Shown in pieces: positions 4,226 to 9,931 of a stretch of DNA of 40,015 bases (position 1 is the first letter of the stretch; the number at the start of each line of letters is the position of its first letter). A model generated the notes under the pieces. It had not been told where the DNA came from and did no database searches. It was given only the letters and a program-made list of their open reading frames with translations. The position numbers and the translations under genes are program-made. The stretch is from Coleofasciculus sp. B1-GNL1-01 (GTDB lineage Bacteria > Cyanobacteriota > Cyanobacteriia > Cyanobacteriales > Coleofasciculaceae): NCBI GenBank assembly GCA_040220235.1, contig JAVJTO010000126.1, one strand, 5' to 3'.

Positions 4226-5665
4226 CTATGACTGATGATTGCGTTCCCAAAGTTGATGGAGAATTTGGACATGAACCTCGCGAGTAATCGGATAAAAATA
4301 GCTACAAACCAAACCGCAAATTAAGATCAACGTGGGTAAAGGACCAATAATCATCCGGATGGCGAACAACGCCGACTCCGGTTGCACCGGATTGGGTTCT
4401 CCCGCCACACTCGAAATAAACCCAGCCCAGTCGAGTATTTTTCCCACTAAAAAAAGTGCGATCGCAAACCCCATTTTCTGAAATAATACCATGAACCCAT
4501 AGAAAATCCCCTCCCGTCGTTGTCCGCTGTTGAGTTCATCGAGATCCACAACATCGGGTAACATTGACCAGGGAATCAGATAAGCCGTAGCAATACCAAA
4601 CCCTGCCAGTACAGCTAAACCATAGAGTAAACCAACTTGACCCGGTTGCAGGAAAAATAAGCCAGCTTCCGCCAAAATTAACAACGGCATTCCAATTAAA
4701 TACACCGCTTTTTTCCCCAACCGCTTACTCACGAAACTCCAAATAAACATCATCATCAGCGCCGTTCCTTGCACCGCGATCGCGACTTGGGTAAAGTGGT
4801 GATCGGGTAATCCCATCCAGTTAATCACAAAGTAGGGCAAAATCGCGGCAGTAATCTGTACCCCTAACCACGAACAAAGATAAATACCCATGACATACAA
4901 GAAAGGGCGATTGGCAAAAATATAGCCAATTTGCGATCGCCAGGGTAACGATGGGCGTACCGACGCATTCACTGTTTCCGTTGCTTGCTGATTGAGGACA
5001 ACCCGATGAGTTCCTAAAACACTGACGTAGGCAGATACAACAGCGCAAGTAGCACAGACAATTCCTAACACTAAATATTTTTGGCTAGGGTGTTCCACTA
5101 CAGAAAAGATCACTTGAGCCAAAACTAATGCCAGAATCGCGCCACCGACAGAAAATGCTGATTTAAAACTAATCAAGCTAGTCCGTTCATGATAATCTTG
5201 AGTCAGTTCGGGAGCTAGAGCAGAGAAAGGCAGCAGCACTGATGTAAACGCGGCATAAAATAGAACCCCTAAAACACCGTAGTAACCGAATAAAGCCTGC
5301 TGATTCAACGTTACATCTTGACTAAACGTCGGCACAATCCACAGCAACATAAAAAAGAGTCCCAAAGGAACCGCCCCACAGACAATCCACGGATACCGCC
5401 GTCCCCAACGTGAACGGGTGTGATCACTAAGCCAGCCAATCAACGGATCATTAATCGCATCCCAGGCTTTGCTAATCAGCATCACAGTACCCGCTTTACT
5501 CGCACTAAGTCCAGCGATATTCGTGAGAAAAAATAAGAAGAAAAAGGATAAAATATTGCCAGGAATCGCGGCTGCTAGCTCACCCACTCCATAGGTGAAC
5601 TTGGTGGTAAAACGCAGCGTTTTAGTTTCTGGCTGGGGTAAAGCAGATGAGGAAAACTGATCCAT
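4226..5665 (-). CDS. MFS transporter, GPH (MelB-like glycoside-pentoside-hexuronide:cation symporter) family
   Basis: WDAINDPLIGWLSDHTRSRWGRRYPW, ELTQDYHERTSL, SMLPDVVDLDELNSGQRREGIFYG; about 12 hydrophobic segments. Confidence 0.92.
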   Translation of the reverse strand: MDQFSSSALPQPETKTLRFTTKFTYGVGELAAAIPGNILSFFFLFFLTNIAGLSASKAGTVMLISKAWDAINDPLIGWLSDHTRSRWGRRYPWIVCGAVPLGLFFMLLWIVPTFSQDVTLNQQALFGYYGVLGVLFYAAFTSVLLPFSALAPELTQDYHERTSLISFKSAFSVGGAILALVLAQVIFSVVEHPSQKYLVLGIVCATCAVVSAYVSVLGTHRVVLNQQATETVNASVRPSLPWRSQIGYIFANRPFLYVMGIYLCSWLGVQITAAILPYFVINWMGLPDHHFTQVAIAVQGTALMMMFIWSFVSKRLGKKAVYLIGMPLLILAEAGLFFLQPGQVGLLYGLAVLAGFGIATAYLIPWSMLPDVVDLDELNSGQRREGIFYGFMVLFQKMGFAIALFLVGKILDWAGFISSVAGEPNPVQPESALFAIRMIIGPLPTLILICGLVCSYFYPITREVHVQILHQLWERNHQS

Positions 5666-5799
5666 AGCGTCAACTTTAGAGTTTGTAGTAAGCGCTTTAG
5701 CGCTGATCTCTCATGGACTGACAACAAAGCCAAAGCCTTATTATTACTACCTTATACCGGGTAGACTACCTACTTTCCAAGTAGCGTATCACCCCGTCA

Positions 5800-5861
5800 G
5801 GTTTATGGCACTAAAGTGCCTACTACGAACGGTTTATGGCACTAAAGTGCTTACTACGAAC
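5800..5861. repeat. Two tandem 31-bp units carrying a GTAG-type palindrome
   Basis: GGTTTATGGCACTAAAGTGC(C/T)TACTACGAAC x2; the reverse complement matches the GTAGTAAGCGCTTTAGCGCT motif at 5685 and a variant at 13805. Confidence 0.8.
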
Positions 5862-6237
5862 GGAACGAACGCGATCGCCTGATCAATTACGTCTACGTCT
5901 GACAATTTTGCTTCCCCTGACATCCCAGAGGATAGGCTGAATTGTAGGTATGCGATCGCTTACCTCCCACACGCTGAAGACGCCAGTAAAGCTCAGTAGC
6001 CTTTGGAGACTGCCGTTGTGCCTAGCATAAGAATCCTCATAATAATGCCTCCGTCGCAGGAAACTCCGTGTATGCGAGACCGGAGAGGAATGCGCGGTAG
6101 CGGTTTTAAACTCCTAAGCTTTCCACAGGTTATACTGATTCTATTGTTGCTGCCGTAGTAATTTAACTCAGGACAGCATAACTGAGTCTTCTGTTGATGT
6201 TAAAACGAGAGTTAAAAAATACTAATCGTGAGGATTT

Positions 6238-6765
6238 ATGACTATTTTAGATTCTAAAGGTCGTCTTTTTGGTAAAATCAGCATTCTTGATCTAGGGGCT
6301 GCCTTGGTCATTTTATTAGTGATTGTGGGAATCTTTTTCATTCCAGGTACAGGTTCCGTCGCCCAGATACCTGGAAGCAGCGCCGAAAAATCTGTTGAAG
6401 TTGATTTGATTGTTCGAGGGTTGAGCGTGCGTAAGCCAGAGGATTTGATGTCTCAATTTAGAGCAGAAAAGAAAACAAATATCGTTATTCGTAATCAACC
6501 CTCTGGTAAGGTAGACATCATATCGGTACAAGAATTGCCAAGACTGGTTATTGTACCTCAACCCGATGGCTCGGCTAAAGCGCTACCCGATCCCAGACCT
6601 GACACCTTTAGCACTGATATACTAATGACCCTCGGTGGTCAAGCCACTATTACCGATGATGGTCCGGTTCTGGGAAATAGCAAGCTTAAAATTGGAACGC
6701 CTGTGGAATTAGAGGGTAAGGATTACAATTTCAACGCTAGCGTGATTGATGTCAGGGTTGAGTAA
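6238..6765 (+). CDS. DUF4330 family cyanobacterial membrane-anchored protein
   Basis: MTILDSKGRLFGKISILDLGAALVILLV N-terminus and GAGGA RBS; the stop codon TAA is supplied by the IscB element end. Confidence 0.85.
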   Translation: MTILDSKGRLFGKISILDLGAALVILLVIVGIFFIPGTGSVAQIPGSSAEKSVEVDLIVRGLSVRKPEDLMSQFRAEKKTNIVIRNQPSGKVDIISVQELPRLVIVPQPDGSAKALPDPRPDTFSTDILMTLGGQATITDDGPVLGNSKLKIGTPVELEGKDYNFNASVIDVRVE

Positions 6766-6990
6766 ACTACCTGCCGCTAAGTCGGAGTACCGACTCTAGC
6801 GGGGGCTTTTAAAGAAGCCCAGAGTTTACCAGGCTGAGTGTTAATTCACTACGTTACGAAAGTCAAGATACCTAAGAATGCGTAGCCAGTTTTTAGCTCT
6901 ATCGTTTGCGATTAAACAGACATATCGGGTTGAAGTCAGTGTCGTAAACCCAAAAAGCTTTCGTAACATTGCCAAGGCTAACATTACCCG
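6762..6990 (+). ncRNA. omegaRNA / HEARO RNA scaffold (guide = upstream flank, about 6742-6761)
   Basis: HEARO-type landmarks in order: GTAAACT...AGTTTAC closing stem, CCAGGCTGAG, CTACGTT, ACCTAAGAATGC.TAGCCAGTTTTTAGCTCT, AACATTGCCAAGGCTAACATTACCC; lies directly upstream of iscB. Confidence 0.85.
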
Positions 6991-7006
6991 CAAGGAGACT
7001 CAAGCT

Positions 7007-8293
7007 TTGAGTAAAGTTTTCGTTTTAGACACCAACAAGCAACCTCTCAACCCCATCCATTCAGGTAGGGCAAGAATGCTGTTATCTCAAGGGAAAGCCG
7101 CTGTATTTCGGCGCTACCCTTTCACCGTGATACTGAACAAGGAGGTGGTCAACCCAAAAGTAGAATCGCTTCGAGTCAAAATCGACCCAGGCGCGAAAAC
7201 TACAGGACTAGCATTAGTCAACGACAGTACTGGTGAGGTTGTTTGGGCTGCCCAGTTACAACACCGAGGGTTTCAAATTCGGGATGCTTTAACGTCACGC
7301 CGCCAGTTAAGACGCTCACGCCGTAACCGCAAAACTCGTTACCGCAAGTCACGTTTTCTGAACCGTACTCGCCCTGAAGGATGGTTGCCACCATCGTTAA
7401 ACAGTCGAGTCGCCAACATCTTGACTTGGGTTAATCGCCTATCATCCATATCTCAAATTACTGCCATATCTCAAGAATTGGTCAGGTTTGACACTCAGCA
7501 GATGGAAGACGCTGAAATTAGCGGAATAGGCTATCAACAAGGCACACTATTCGGTTACGAAATCCGTGAGTTTTTGCTCGAAAAGTGGAACAGAACCTGT
7601 GCCTACTGTGGCGAAAAAGACACCCAACTTGAGATTGAGCATATAAATGCCCGCTCAAAAGGGGGTTCCAACCGAATCAGTAACTTGTGCCTAGCCTGTA
7701 CCTCTTGTAATCAGAAAAAGGGCAACCAGGATATTAAGGATTTCCTCAAGGGTAAACCTGACCTGCTCAAATGCATCCTGTCTCAAGCTAAAAGACCTTT
7801 GGCTGACACAGCAGCAGTCAACGCAACCCGATGGAATCTGTACTATAACCTCAAAAAAACGGGTTTACCTGTCGAAGTTGGCACGGGTGGTCGCACCAAG
7901 TACAACCGAACCATCCGAGGTTTAGACAAAACTCATTACTGGGACGCGGCCTGTGTTGGAGCTTCAACCCCAGAGCAGTTAATCACATCAGAAGTTAAAC
8001 CTCTATTGATTGCTGCTAAAGGTCACGGAACCCGTCAGCAGTGCCGTACTGACAAGTTCGGGTTTCCTAGTCGTTATTGCAAGAGAACAAAATTTCACAA
8101 AGGTTTTCAGACGGGTGACATCGTTAAAGCTGTTGTCACTTCTGGCAAAAAGATTGGAACTTACGTTGGGCGGGTAGCCACTCGTGCTACTGGAAGTTTC
8201 AATATTTCCACAACAGATGGACTGGTTCAAGGAATCAGTCATAAATACTGCTTGCCACTTCACAAAAAGGATGGGTATTCATACATACAGTGA
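7007..8293 (+). CDS. iscB: RNA-guided endonuclease IscB (428 aa)
   Basis: TTG start 7007 after an AAGGAG RBS. PLMP-like (VFVLDTNKQPLNP), RuvC-I (KIDPGAKTTG), Arg-rich bridge helix (RRQLRRSRR), RuvC-II (QELVRFD), HNH (CAYCG...EIEH...SN...CTSCNQKKGN), RuvC-III (HYWDAACV). The track's 6878 start runs through the omegaRNA. Confidence 0.95.
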   Translation: MSKVFVLDTNKQPLNPIHSGRARMLLSQGKAAVFRRYPFTVILNKEVVNPKVESLRVKIDPGAKTTGLALVNDSTGEVVWAAQLQHRGFQIRDALTSRRQLRRSRRNRKTRYRKSRFLNRTRPEGWLPPSLNSRVANILTWVNRLSSISQITAISQELVRFDTQQMEDAEISGIGYQQGTLFGYEIREFLLEKWNRTCAYCGEKDTQLEIEHINARSKGGSNRISNLCLACTSCNQKKGNQDIKDFLKGKPDLLKCILSQAKRPLADTAAVNATRWNLYYNLKKTGLPVEVGTGGRTKYNRTIRGLDKTHYWDAACVGASTPEQLITSEVKPLLIAAKGHGTRQQCRTDKFGFPSRYCKRTKFHKGFQTGDIVKAVVTSGKKIGTYVGRVATRATGSFNISTTDGLVQGISHKYCLPLHKKDGYSYIQ

Positions 8294-8296
8294 TTT

Positions 8297-8332
8297 GAAA
8301 AATTTAGGGGTATTGAACCCCATAAATTTTTC
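8297..8332 (+). terminator. Hairpin directly after iscB
   Basis: GAAAAATTTAGGGG-TATTGAA-CCCCATAAATTTTTC imperfect inverted repeat. Confidence 0.45.
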
Positions 8333-8429
8333 CTCGTTTCCTCCCGCCGCTAAAACTTTGGCGGTACTCGCTTCGCTTGTCCTAATCCGCCTCGTTTATA
8401 GCGGGGGTCTCCACGAGGAGGAAAGATGA

Positions 8430-8528
8430 AAGGGAACAGGGAATAGGGAGCATGTAGAGACGTAGCATGCTACGTCTGGGAGCTGGGGGAGATAATGAAA
8501 TGACAAAAGACTAATGACAAAGGACTAA
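8430..8528. repeat. Mixed short repeats (GGGAACA/GGGAATA heptamers, GTAGAGACGTAGCATGCTACGTCT palindrome, GACAAAG/GACTAAT heptamers)
   Basis: Seen directly; the palindrome family recurs at 10673-10696 and, degenerate, at 33467 and 35520. Confidence 0.7.
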
Positions 8529-9445
8529 TCTGCAATTCTGTCCTCAGACTTTAGCATTTTCAAATACTTTTGGATTAAACCAATTGTGACGGCTGGTAAT
8601 TCGAGCTGAGGAGTCAATCCAACATCCTCAAGGGTTTGAAAGACTTGAACAGCTTTCGGATTGAGAGCCGCCAGTCGTTTGCCGATTTCTGGGCTGGTAA
8701 ATTCCGATTTTTGTCCCCAGATAATTGCTGTGGGAGTGGTCAGTTGAGTAATGTACAGGGATAAGTCAAAGCACAAGTCTCCCCGTACAAACGACAGCGC
8801 TGCATATTCAGCATTGGGTTGTTGAGCTGAGGCTAAATAAGCATCCACAATTTCTGAGTAAATTCGGCTGGAACGAGCAAATTGCCGACTTTCCAAGAAA
8901 CTGCGGATACCGCCTTCAGTGGCGACACCAGTGCTGTAGAGGATGCGATCCAGAATCGGTGTGCTGATTAACTGAGCAAAAAAGCTACGTGTGTAGTCTT
9001 CCCCGAAATCAGAGAGTCCTGATGGAGTGGTGAGAATCAAAGACTTATACAGTTCAGGACGTGCGATCGCGGCTCGGATTGTCAAAGCGGCGGTTAGAGA
9101 CGAAGCAATCACTGGTGTTCCTTGAGGACAGGTTTGCTCTAGGAATTCATTAATCGTGGTGATGTAGTCATCAATCTGATAATTGCGTTCAGGATGCTCT
9201 GAACGACCCCAACCGATGAGGTCAGGGGCTAAAACTCGATACTCACTGGCAAATGCCGGATAGACCTTTGACCACTCATAGGCTGATGACCCGCCCCCAA
9301 AGCCATGCAAAAACACTAATGTTGGTCGTTCTTCTGGCTCAGGGGTTTCTGGGGTTTGCCACGGCATGTCGTCAGCCGTGTAGTATGTCATGCGTCCCAG
9401 TGAGGTCACTAAGGAGTGCTGTTTAAAACCGTTGGGTTCAATCAT
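8525..9445 (-). CDS. Alpha/beta fold hydrolase
   Basis: LVFLHGFGGGSSAYEW, VLAPDLIGWGRSEHP, nucleophile-elbow variant VIASSLTAA, TAIIWGQK. Confidence 0.9.
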   Translation of the reverse strand: MIEPNGFKQHSLVTSLGRMTYYTADDMPWQTPETPEPEERPTLVFLHGFGGGSSAYEWSKVYPAFASEYRVLAPDLIGWGRSEHPERNYQIDDYITTINEFLEQTCPQGTPVIASSLTAALTIRAAIARPELYKSLILTTPSGLSDFGEDYTRSFFAQLISTPILDRILYSTGVATEGGIRSFLESRQFARSSRIYSEIVDAYLASAQQPNAEYAALSFVRGDLCFDLSLYITQLTTPTAIIWGQKSEFTSPEIGKRLAALNPKAVQVFQTLEDVGLTPQLELPAVTIGLIQKYLKMLKSEDRIAD

Positions 9446-9931
9446 ATCTCAACCTTATCGCTATTGCTATCATCCCTGATTCTAGGGTCGAGAGCCTCTG
9501 ACTTTAAGTTGATTCCCTTAATCCGGAATCTTAGGTCAACGTGAGTCAATCTTTGAGAAAAGCGTTAAAATCATAAATTTTGAACTGAGGGAACTTTTCT
9601 CAATATTATTTCATCGGAGGATTTTATGTGAGTGGACGTTTACACACAAAAGGGTACAAACTCATATCAGTAATCATCTTAAAAACACTTGTAGTTTTGA
9701 GTGAGACGGTTCCAGGGAGCATCATTGCGGCTGAGTTTCCATTTGAGCATAACCCGCCTGTAAACGTGATTTGCCAGCAGAGCGGAGATATCTGGTGATT
9801 TTGAGAGCAGGAGATTTAAACGGTGCTTGAAACCTCAAACTTGACATTTTTTCTAGGCTTATAGAGTTATAAGCTTTCCGGTGTTCGATCTGATCAATTT
9901 ATTTATTTGTTGTTTAAAATCTGTTATAACA

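Follow-up and report, generated by a model that had tools for sequence, protein, structure and literature searches.

The window, as we call the 40,015-base stretch of Coleofasciculus DNA analysed here, contains a host gene for a 175-aa DUF4330 protein (6238..6765, + strand, from the ORF list; Pfam DUF4330, 5.7e-63) whose 3′ end runs into a mobile element on the same strand. The element (6762..8425, 1,664 bp) is an ISC-type, non-autonomous member of IS200/IS605 without a target-site duplication. Its ends are fixed exactly, at 6761|6762 and 8425|8426, by the empty-site alleles of relatives, in which 6761 is joined directly to 8426, indicating a precise insertion. An earlier note on this DNA had predicted the element-free allele as GTCAGGGTTGA|ATGAAAGGG, and that exact sequence, ...GTCAGGGTTGA|ATGAAAGGG, occurs without a single mismatch in three congeners (L024 in G001, L032 in G003, and L027 in G005). 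Both junctions of the occupied allele are also spanned by contigs from four RNA-labelled runs, which are independent assemblies (e.g., 6418-6791 and 8104-8474). The ORF list leaves no room for tnpA within 6762-8425, and the genome's 13 Y1_Tnp matches all fall on other contigs, in keeping with the original description of an IscB-omegaRNA element that lacks tnpA.

The insertion falls on the stop codon of the DUF4330 gene without altering its product. Empty alleles end in GTT GAA TGA, while the window reads GTT GAG TAA, with the final G and the TAA stop supplied by the element. Because the change from GAA-TGA to GAG-TAA retains the protein end VRVE*, the DUF4330 protein is unchanged. The last 16 coding bases of this gene ahead of the junction are, at the same time, the predicted guide of the element.

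Directly upstream of the iscB start at 7007, on the same + strand, lies the omegaRNA scaffold, a HEARO RNA at 6762..6987. The scaffold had been placed at 6762-6990 in the earlier note, and the covariance-model check returned a full-length match to Rfam RF02033 (145.7 bits vs. a cut-off of 83, E 1.1e-30, model positions 1-211 of 211), the sole Rfam match above the gathering score in the whole window. Among 25 subfamily loci, compensatory changes were found in 24 of the 52 predicted scaffold pairs, counting pairs in which at least one sequence was altered on both sides. In the alignment of these loci, conservation begins sharply at GTAAAC/GTCAAC and the preceding 16 nt are unrelated, supporting the proposed position of the guide 5′ of the scaffold. 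Its proposed length of 20 nt was not kept. Because the guide of OgeuIscB has been published as 16–17 nt (PMC9640706), we instead mark a predicted 16-nt guide segment (TTGATGTCAGGGTTGA, 6746..6761, + strand), which lies outside the transposon and directly 5′ of the scaffold. A search of the genome for this guide followed by ATGA found no further copy, i.e., no self-target.

A small hairpin, ACTC...GAGT, follows the scaffold at 6996..7012 (+ strand), with a loop that contains the start codon of iscB. Its four pairs (alignment columns 316-319 with 328-331) differ in the alignment: three have 3–4 sequences altered on both sides, and in the fourth only one side varies. This hairpin could belong to the omegaRNA as its 3′ part, or it could serve to control translation.

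The iscB gene itself (7007..8293, + strand) opens with a TTG start preceded by AAGGAG 9 nt upstream, encodes 428 aa, and closes with a stop at 8291-8293. Pfam places RRXRR at residues 4-179 (5.9e-73) and HNH at residues 198-241 (3.4e-12), IscB chains in the PDB are matched with E-values of 1e-26 to 1e-39, and the PLMP-type N-terminus reads PLNP at residues 13-16. A 428-aa IscB with its RuvC and HNH residues in place was among the earlier claims, and all five catalytic residues could be aligned to OgeuIscB using the published list (PMC9640706): RuvC D60, E157, H310, and D313 with D61, E193, H340, and D343, and HNH H212 with H247. The same five residues do not vary in any of 19 more distant subfamily members.

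Ten comparisons with relatives 84–89% identical in protein gave dN/dS values of 0.057–0.082. The closest comparisons appear to show weaker constraint on small counts: dN/dS rises to 0.37 against L053, the nearest copy at another locus, from only 12.5 synonymous and 15.5 non-synonymous changes, and the same-site copy, L052, differs by two non-synonymous and zero synonymous changes. Eleven positions on which at least 17 of the 19 other members agree are substituted in the Coleofasciculus lineage, and one of these changes is P215A, three residues past the HNH histidine. None of these 11 is private to the window copy.

At the other end of the element, the host DNA just outside it begins with ATGAA (8426..8430, + strand), which is the target motif of the transposon and, we predict, also the TAM, ATGA(A). 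This motif had been claimed from the window, and it recurs in the empty alleles; all 29 distinct subfamily sites have ATGA adjoining the 3′ end of the element, a count for which right ends were set from the sequence past the iscB stop. The fifth base over these sites is A at 18, T at 7, G at 3, and C at 1. An N|ATGA target has been published for cyanobacterial ISC transposons (PMC4810608), as has an NTGA TAM for the relative IsrB (PMC9581776), and the window IscB may well use ATGA(A) as its TAM. What comes after the guide flank at 6746-6761 differs between the alleles: ATGAAA where the site is empty, GTAAAC where it is occupied. We propose that GTAAA next to the same 16 nt protects the occupied allele from cleavage. 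With the guide as flank, the TAM as target motif, and an occupied allele without a TAM, the layout fits restorative homing.

Just past the iscB stop, a terminator-like hairpin with a T run (8297..8332, + strand) is followed at the iscB-distal end by a long imperfect subterminal hairpin (8337..8424, + strand; DNA fold z −5.3). The latter has CCGCTA...TAGCGGGGG in common with the first stem-loop of the opposite end and the purine-rich GAGGAGGAAAG as its 3′ arm. Conservation across loci extends to the end sequence, ..TCTCCAnGrGGrAAGAAAG. Subterminal hairpins at both ends had been noticed before, and when folded as single-stranded DNA, the two ends score z −4.9 to −5.6, and not one of 200 shuffles folds as well. 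BLAST with both ends found no second copy in the window's own genome, each end being single-copy, and in nine congeneric genomes the iscB-distal end was found only beside IscB copies, at 0–2 per genome. No element with matching ends carries Y1_Tnp in the own genome or in these nine, and no link to the element emerged for any of the 13 Y1_Tnp loci. A strict motif for the iscB-distal end was found at three places in the own genome, but the two besides the window's own have no hairpin and look like ordinary ribosome-binding regions, and we rejected them.

Comparison within the genus shows that the element has been mobile. Of the eight congeners at this site, one (G002) carries the same-site insertion, three are empty with ATGAA, one has ATGAC, two have ATAAA, and one has had its right flank replaced. 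Copies 97–98% identical occur at other loci (G003:C46 and G006:C212), the former with 35 differences over 1,664 bp and an open IscB. Since both of these sites are without the element in the window's own genome, the element has changed place within the genus. Each of the four copies (the window, L052, L022, and L053), which occupy three loci, is open. As a side observation, L021 carries an indel downstream of the element.

We read 6762-8425 as a non-autonomous ISC transposon that is intact and has entered the DUF4330 stop codon at TTGA|ATGAA, and it would likely act as an OMEGA homing system. It is a further, well-preserved member of the already known ISC/IscB-omegaRNA class, and each structural inference of the earlier note held up. 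In the published model, the guide lies beyond the transposon end, transcription comes from outside, and IscB carries out restorative homing (10.1101/2023.03.14.532601; PMC13565253). For the window element we infer read-through, cleavage, and homing from sequence, and TAM use from insertion sites only. Transcription from the co-oriented DUF4330 gene would enter the element and yield an RNA in which the ~16 nt ahead of the scaffold (6746-6761) serve as the guide. When a TnpA acting in trans excises the element, IscB with this RNA would cut the element-free allele, where the guide match is followed by ATGA, and repair from an occupied chromosome copy would restore the element. Moves to new ATGA sites would likewise need a Y1 transposase encoded elsewhere.

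In a different account, the locus is a stranded relic whose open IscB and folded RNA persist by descent and are starting to decay. With no cognate transposase in the genome, the element would never be excised and the nuclease would never meet its target. The subfamily is single-copy in its own genome, congeners hold 0–2 copies each, and no same-end element without iscB was found. Both the dN/dS of up to 0.37 against the nearest copy elsewhere and the purely non-synonymous differences from the same-site copy would suit early decay, and an unaltered host protein implies no selection for removal. However, the raised dN/dS comes from small counts, each of the four copies, spread over three loci, is open, and no conserved-position substitution is private to the window copy. 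The reciprocal presence and absence between species further points to movement since their split. We regard a relic as a rather unlikely explanation. Far less credible still is a domesticated RNA-guided regulator, fixed and recruited by the host in the way that TldR proteins derive from TnpB. The gene-boundary position and intact host protein would agree with recruitment, but every nuclease residue is retained, the insertion is polymorphic in congeners, and the element also occupies other loci. Moreover, the guide matches its own flank only, and we saw neither genus-wide fixation nor a promoter match.

How an active system would be transcribed is a separate question, and here the omegaRNA could have a start of its own within the 3′ portion of the DUF4330 gene rather than arise by mRNA read-through. 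No terminator-like or promoter-like site was found between the DUF4330 gene and the scaffold, and a consensus scan of the + strand over 5600-7000 returned no sigma-70-like site. Cyanobacterial promoters often have no clear −35 box, and so the negative scan is compatible with a promoter of that kind. The upstream gene is also opposite at 5 of the 19 callable sites, meaning that some copies would be transcribed without a co-oriented host gene. Yet because the guide lies outside the element, each new site would have to offer a dedicated promoter already present in the host DNA. The published bias of IscB elements toward co-oriented upstream genes (10.1101/2023.03.14.532601) also argues against a separate start, as does our own crude count of 14 co-oriented and 5 opposite sites, with 10 unclear. 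We regard a start within the gene as unlikely. Read-through from the DUF4330 gene would be consistent with the absent terminator and promoter, and it fits both the published bias and the 14:5 count.

Sequencing runs bear on the presence of the element rather than on its expression. Thirteen runs matched, 10 of them on record as RNA, and four RNA-labelled runs (X1-X4) were examined as contigs. These cover the whole of 5700-9500, with a depth over the element (~100–390) equal to that of its flanks and of the opposite-strand hydrolase gene. Such flat contig depth is what DNA carry-over would give, and it shows presence and both junctions, not transcription, strand, or 5′ ends. The X1-X4 contigs contained no empty-site joint, although contigs drop rare variants.

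Several described systems resemble the window element in part. Like ISC1-1_MA (Microcystis aeruginosa), ISC2-1_HM, and ISC2-1_MS (Kapitonov, Makarova and Koonin 2016, PMC4810608), the window element is non-autonomous, and an IscB-family protein is all that it encodes. It shares with the ISC elements of that study a 5′-GT terminus, subterminal hairpins, the lack of a target-site duplication, and a position immediately 5′ of ATGA, and their ends were likewise defined from occupied vs. empty loci across genomes. By contrast, its host genus, Coleofasciculus, differs from those of the N|ATGA elements reported there, its 3′ terminus is ..GGAAAG rather than ..CG, and no IS605B partner with a common terminus was found for it. 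For Coleofasciculus chthonoplastes, the accessible portion of PMC4810608 lists only TT|GG and TT|GA ISC1 elements. With the window element, the published ISC catalogue gains an N|ATGA family from Coleofasciculus.

The IscB elements of Geobacillus stearothermophilus (Meers et al., 10.1101/2023.03.14.532601; PMC13565253) similarly have a HEARO-type omegaRNA upstream of iscB that spans the transposon end, with the guide outside, a co-oriented upstream gene, and a TAM that equals the target motif, as predicted here. That system has been tested experimentally and its TnpA identified, whereas activity, transcription, and transposase are deduced for the window. OgeuIscB (PDB 7XHT/7UTN; Kato et al. 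2022, PMC9640706) has the same PLMP-type N-terminus (PLNP here), split RuvC with D/E/H/D, arginine-rich bridge helix, HNH histidine, and scaffold of ~200–230 nt. The similarity is distant (E 2.7e-26), the window protein is shorter (428 vs. 496 aa), and the OgeuIscB TAM is NWRRNA (PMC12660989) vs. the ATGA predicted here. A likeness to the predicted window TAM is seen in the OMEGA nickase DtIsrB (Hirano et al. 2022, PMC9581776), whose measured TAM, 3′ of the target, is NTGA/TTGA with ATGA accepted. However, IsrB is without HNH and only nicks DNA, while the window protein has the HNH domain.

The known workings of OMEGA systems are unchanged by this element. Its value is as a clean natural specimen, in which element, guide, inferred TAM, and real empty target can all be read within one genus. 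A compact 428-aa IscB with a likely ATGA-type TAM is therefore ready for an interference assay on its native target. The locus is also a case of an element sitting on a gene boundary, at a stop codon, without harm to the host gene.

This position leads us to suggest, tentatively and with somewhat more doubt than confidence, that the subfamily is built for gene boundaries, entering transcribed and translated operons without breaking them and so securing transcription of its guide. The N|ATGA target would then be the start/stop overlap motif of bacterial operons, and the G-TAA of the 5′ end would give the upstream gene a new stop and a synonymous last codon, as in DUF4330. If true, the guide here, which the element cannot itself encode, would be cut from translated host mRNA. 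We did not find this habit in print, and the term "start codon" has 0 occurrences in the accessible portion of PMC4810608. Stop-codon supply as a general habit was considered and rejected as too weak, since an upstream frame of at least 80 codons is closed at 5 of 20 distinct sites with a GTAA terminus vs. 343 of 3,000 random positions. At the 3′ end, a purine-rich GGAGG-type stretch lies a few bases ahead of the ATG, and a frame of at least 80 codons opens after the element at 17 of 29 distinct sites, compared to 198 of 1,481 random ATGA sites.

The earlier note's observation of an IscB-omegaRNA (OMEGA) system was confirmed, and our results supported its interpretation on every structural point. 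As an ISC/IscB element that combines an N|ATGA target with a HEARO omegaRNA, it belongs to a described kind, of which it is an ordinary and well-preserved example, and its practical use is as a ready-made natural test case.

By querying 40 related genomes and the window's own (41 in all) with window 5700-9500, we found that the element-free allele reconstructed in the earlier note is real. The flanks directly adjoin in the congeners G003 and G001, with window 6761 joined to 8426 (...GTCAGGGTTGA|ATGAAAGGGAAC), and the 6761|8426 joint in G005 is identical. Because the empty alleles join these positions, the element spans 6762-8425 on the plus strand (1,664 bp) and lies in its site without target duplication. 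Upon insertion, the end of the host DUF4330 gene changes from GTT GAA TGA to GTT GAG TAA, and the protein end VRVE is kept. In G002 this site is occupied by the element, with 99.4% identity over 2,001 bases, and the insertion-site motif is ATGAC in G004 and ATAAA in G007 and G008. In G006 (contig C33), the left flank matches at 100% identity as far as the equivalent of window 6761, but ~222 unrelated bases stand in place of the ATGAAAGGG... flank before similarity returns at window 8494; this is a separate rearrangement at the same point. Both element junctions are bridged by contigs of four sequencing runs on record as RNA, and the assembly is therefore independently confirmed. Contig depth in these runs is the same over the element, its flanks, and an opposite-strand hydrolase gene, so these contigs attest the junctions rather than transcription. 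Close to the right end of the element lies a short, G-rich, palindrome-containing stretch (8431-8493, GTAGAGACGTAGCATGCTACGTCT). Its summed contig depth in the four runs was 28,000-60,000 vs. ~60-390 around it, and numerous distinct loose ends flank it on either side. It appears to be a short element present many times over in these genomes.

The only Rfam match above the gathering score in the whole window was HEARO (RF02033), which placed the scaffold, read earlier as 6762-6990, at 6762-6987 on the plus strand (145.7 bits vs. a cut-off of 83) and aligned to all 211 positions of the model. Across 25 aligned subfamily loci, 24 of the 52 predicted RNA pairs showed compensatory changes, including the first stem (GTAAAC/GTTTAC vs. 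GTCAAC/GTTGAC). Base 6772 is T in the window but C in all relatives and in the contigs of all four runs, which turns a C-G pair of the scaffold into a G-U pair. Downstream, a four-pair hairpin (ACTC...GAGT, 6996-7012, plus strand), also with compensatory changes, has a loop that contains the iscB start codon, whether TTG, GTG, or ATG across relatives. Three relatives have GGAC...GTCC instead, a swap that also exchanges the second iscB codon, AGT, for the synonymous serine codon TCC. This hairpin may be the omegaRNA 3′ end or a translation brake.

The iscB gene (7007-8293, plus strand) opens with TTG 20 bases beyond the scaffold, has AAGGAG 9 nt upstream, and runs for 428 codons. Its protein matched the Pfam domains RRXRR (residues 4-179, 5.9e-73) and HNH (residues 198-241, 3.4e-12), as well as solved IscB structures with E values of 1e-26 to 1e-39. 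In a HMMER alignment to 7xht_A, the OgeuIscB catalytic residues given by Kato et al. (PMC9640706), RuvC D61, E193, H340, and D343 and HNH H247, correspond to D60, E157, H310, D313, and H212, so that all five are kept, in line with the intact RuvC and HNH residues claimed for this 428-aa protein. At 11 positions that at least 17 of 19 other members conserve, the Coleofasciculus lineage carries a substitution, none of them private to the window copy. One is P215A (window 7649-7651), three residues beyond the catalytic HNH histidine, with Ala in all four Coleofasciculus-lineage copies and Pro in all 19 other subfamily members. Against ten relatives at 84-89% protein identity, dN/dS was 0.057-0.082. 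By contrast, it was 0.37 against the nearest copy at another locus (12.5 synonymous and 15.5 non-synonymous changes), and the same-site copy differed by two non-synonymous and no synonymous changes. These last comparisons, with their small counts, allow for a recent relaxation of constraint on iscB.

We scanned one genome per species and obtained 80 loci, the closest in records titled Coleofasciculus and others in Microcoleus, Laspinema, Lusitaniella, and more. The closest-protein set comprised 31 of the 80 (at least 80% identity), after exclusion of a truncated contig end, a record end, and a partial match. After the iscB stop, all 31 end in ..TCTCCAnGrGGrAAGAAAG followed by ATGA. The ATGA-type motif proposed earlier thus adjoins the element 3′ end at 29/29 distinct sites from these loci, counted with a pattern that demanded ATGA within 16 bases of the conserved core and with the sequences also read by eye. 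The most frequent fifth base was A (18 sites), ahead of T (7), G (3), and C (1). Kapitonov et al. (PMC4810608) describe the same N|ATGA target, together with a 5′-GT terminus, for cyanobacterial and proteobacterial ISC transposons. On the other side, the 16 bases 5′ of the element are unrelated among 25 aligned loci, and conservation starts exactly at GTAAAC/GTCAAC. This is what a flank-encoded guide predicts, and it agrees with the guide position assigned before. What comes directly after bases 6746-6761 differs between the alleles, GTAAAC when the element is present and ATGAAA when it is absent; no second guide plus ATGA site was found in the window's own genome.

In the model of Meers et al. 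(10.1101/2023.03.14.532601), the scaffold of IscB elements is the transposon end, the guide lies outside it, transcription has to begin outside, and there is a bias towards upstream genes in the same orientation. The window matches this model in that the co-oriented DUF4330 gene (6238-6765) runs into the scaffold, with no terminator-like or promoter-like site found between the two. By a crude count, 14 sites had a co-oriented upstream gene and 5 an opposite one, with 10 unclear. The allele difference after 6746-6761 and the lack of a second guide plus ATGA site agree with the model as well. Read-through from the DUF4330 gene would carry transcription into the scaffold, the 16 bases 6746-6761 would serve as the guide of the omegaRNA, and IscB would cleave with ATGA(A) as its predicted TAM. 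The outcome would probably be restorative homing, for which a 2026 review (PMC13565253) counts IscB among the systems in which it has been shown.

The target motif also bears on gene boundaries. Of the 29 distinct sites, 17 have a frame of at least 80 codons opening at the motif's ATG, vs. 198 of 1,481 ATGA sites sampled from the window's own genome, and the final bases of the element form a purine-rich, GGAGG-type stretch. We found no description of such a habit in the literature searched. The window site is not among the 17; its ATGA overlaps the stop codon, which the element's G-TAA replaces. Stop-codon supply is weak as a general habit of the subfamily, since the element closed an upstream frame of at least 80 codons at 5/20 sites vs. 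343/3,000 random positions.

The hairpins reported at both ends were borne out, as both ends, as single-stranded DNA, fold far more stably than shuffled sequence (z −4.9 to −5.6). After the iscB stop come a terminator-like hairpin with a T run (8297-8332) and a long imperfect hairpin (8337-8424), both on the plus strand. The absence of tnpA also stands: the ORF list of 6762-8425 leaves no space for a transposase gene, and the 13 Y1_Tnp matches of the genome all lie on contigs other than the window's. Across nine genomes of the genus, the element's iscB-distal end occurs 0-2 times per genome, always beside iscB. In neither these genomes nor the window's own did we find a transposon with matching ends and a transposase, and the element may therefore be a relic stranded in its genome, although we consider this unlikely. 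The element has moved between loci within the genus. Copies 97-98% identical to it occupy other loci in G003 (contig C46; 35 differing positions, IscB frame open) and G006 (contig C212), and the window's own genome lacks the element at both equivalent sites. One of these, on C94 (539|540), is a clean empty site. The other (G000:C39:70061-70095) has 35 extra bases, starting ATGAAA, between the left flank and ATGAAC. In G006 the element is followed by ATGAAC, without the DNA between the two ATGAA motifs; the difference may stem from a deletion linked to insertion or repair, or from an independent indel.

HEARO matches in the window's own genome numbered 19, 13 of them above the cut-off. Another IscB/HEARO family there, ~60% identical in protein to the window IscB, is split by contig ends in matching halves (C145:2-808, C154:2-783, C93:19391-20167, C69:8-784); the same N-terminal half stands at the end of two contigs, and the C-terminal half at the start of two more. 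This suggests that at least two near-identical copies broke the assembly and hence that this family was recently active. Two copies in records titled Laspinema (L073 and L077), from two species but occupying the same site, are shortened at the 3′ end: the iscB stop and ATGA are just 47 bases apart, and the subterminal hairpin is mostly gone. Both are probably immobilised.
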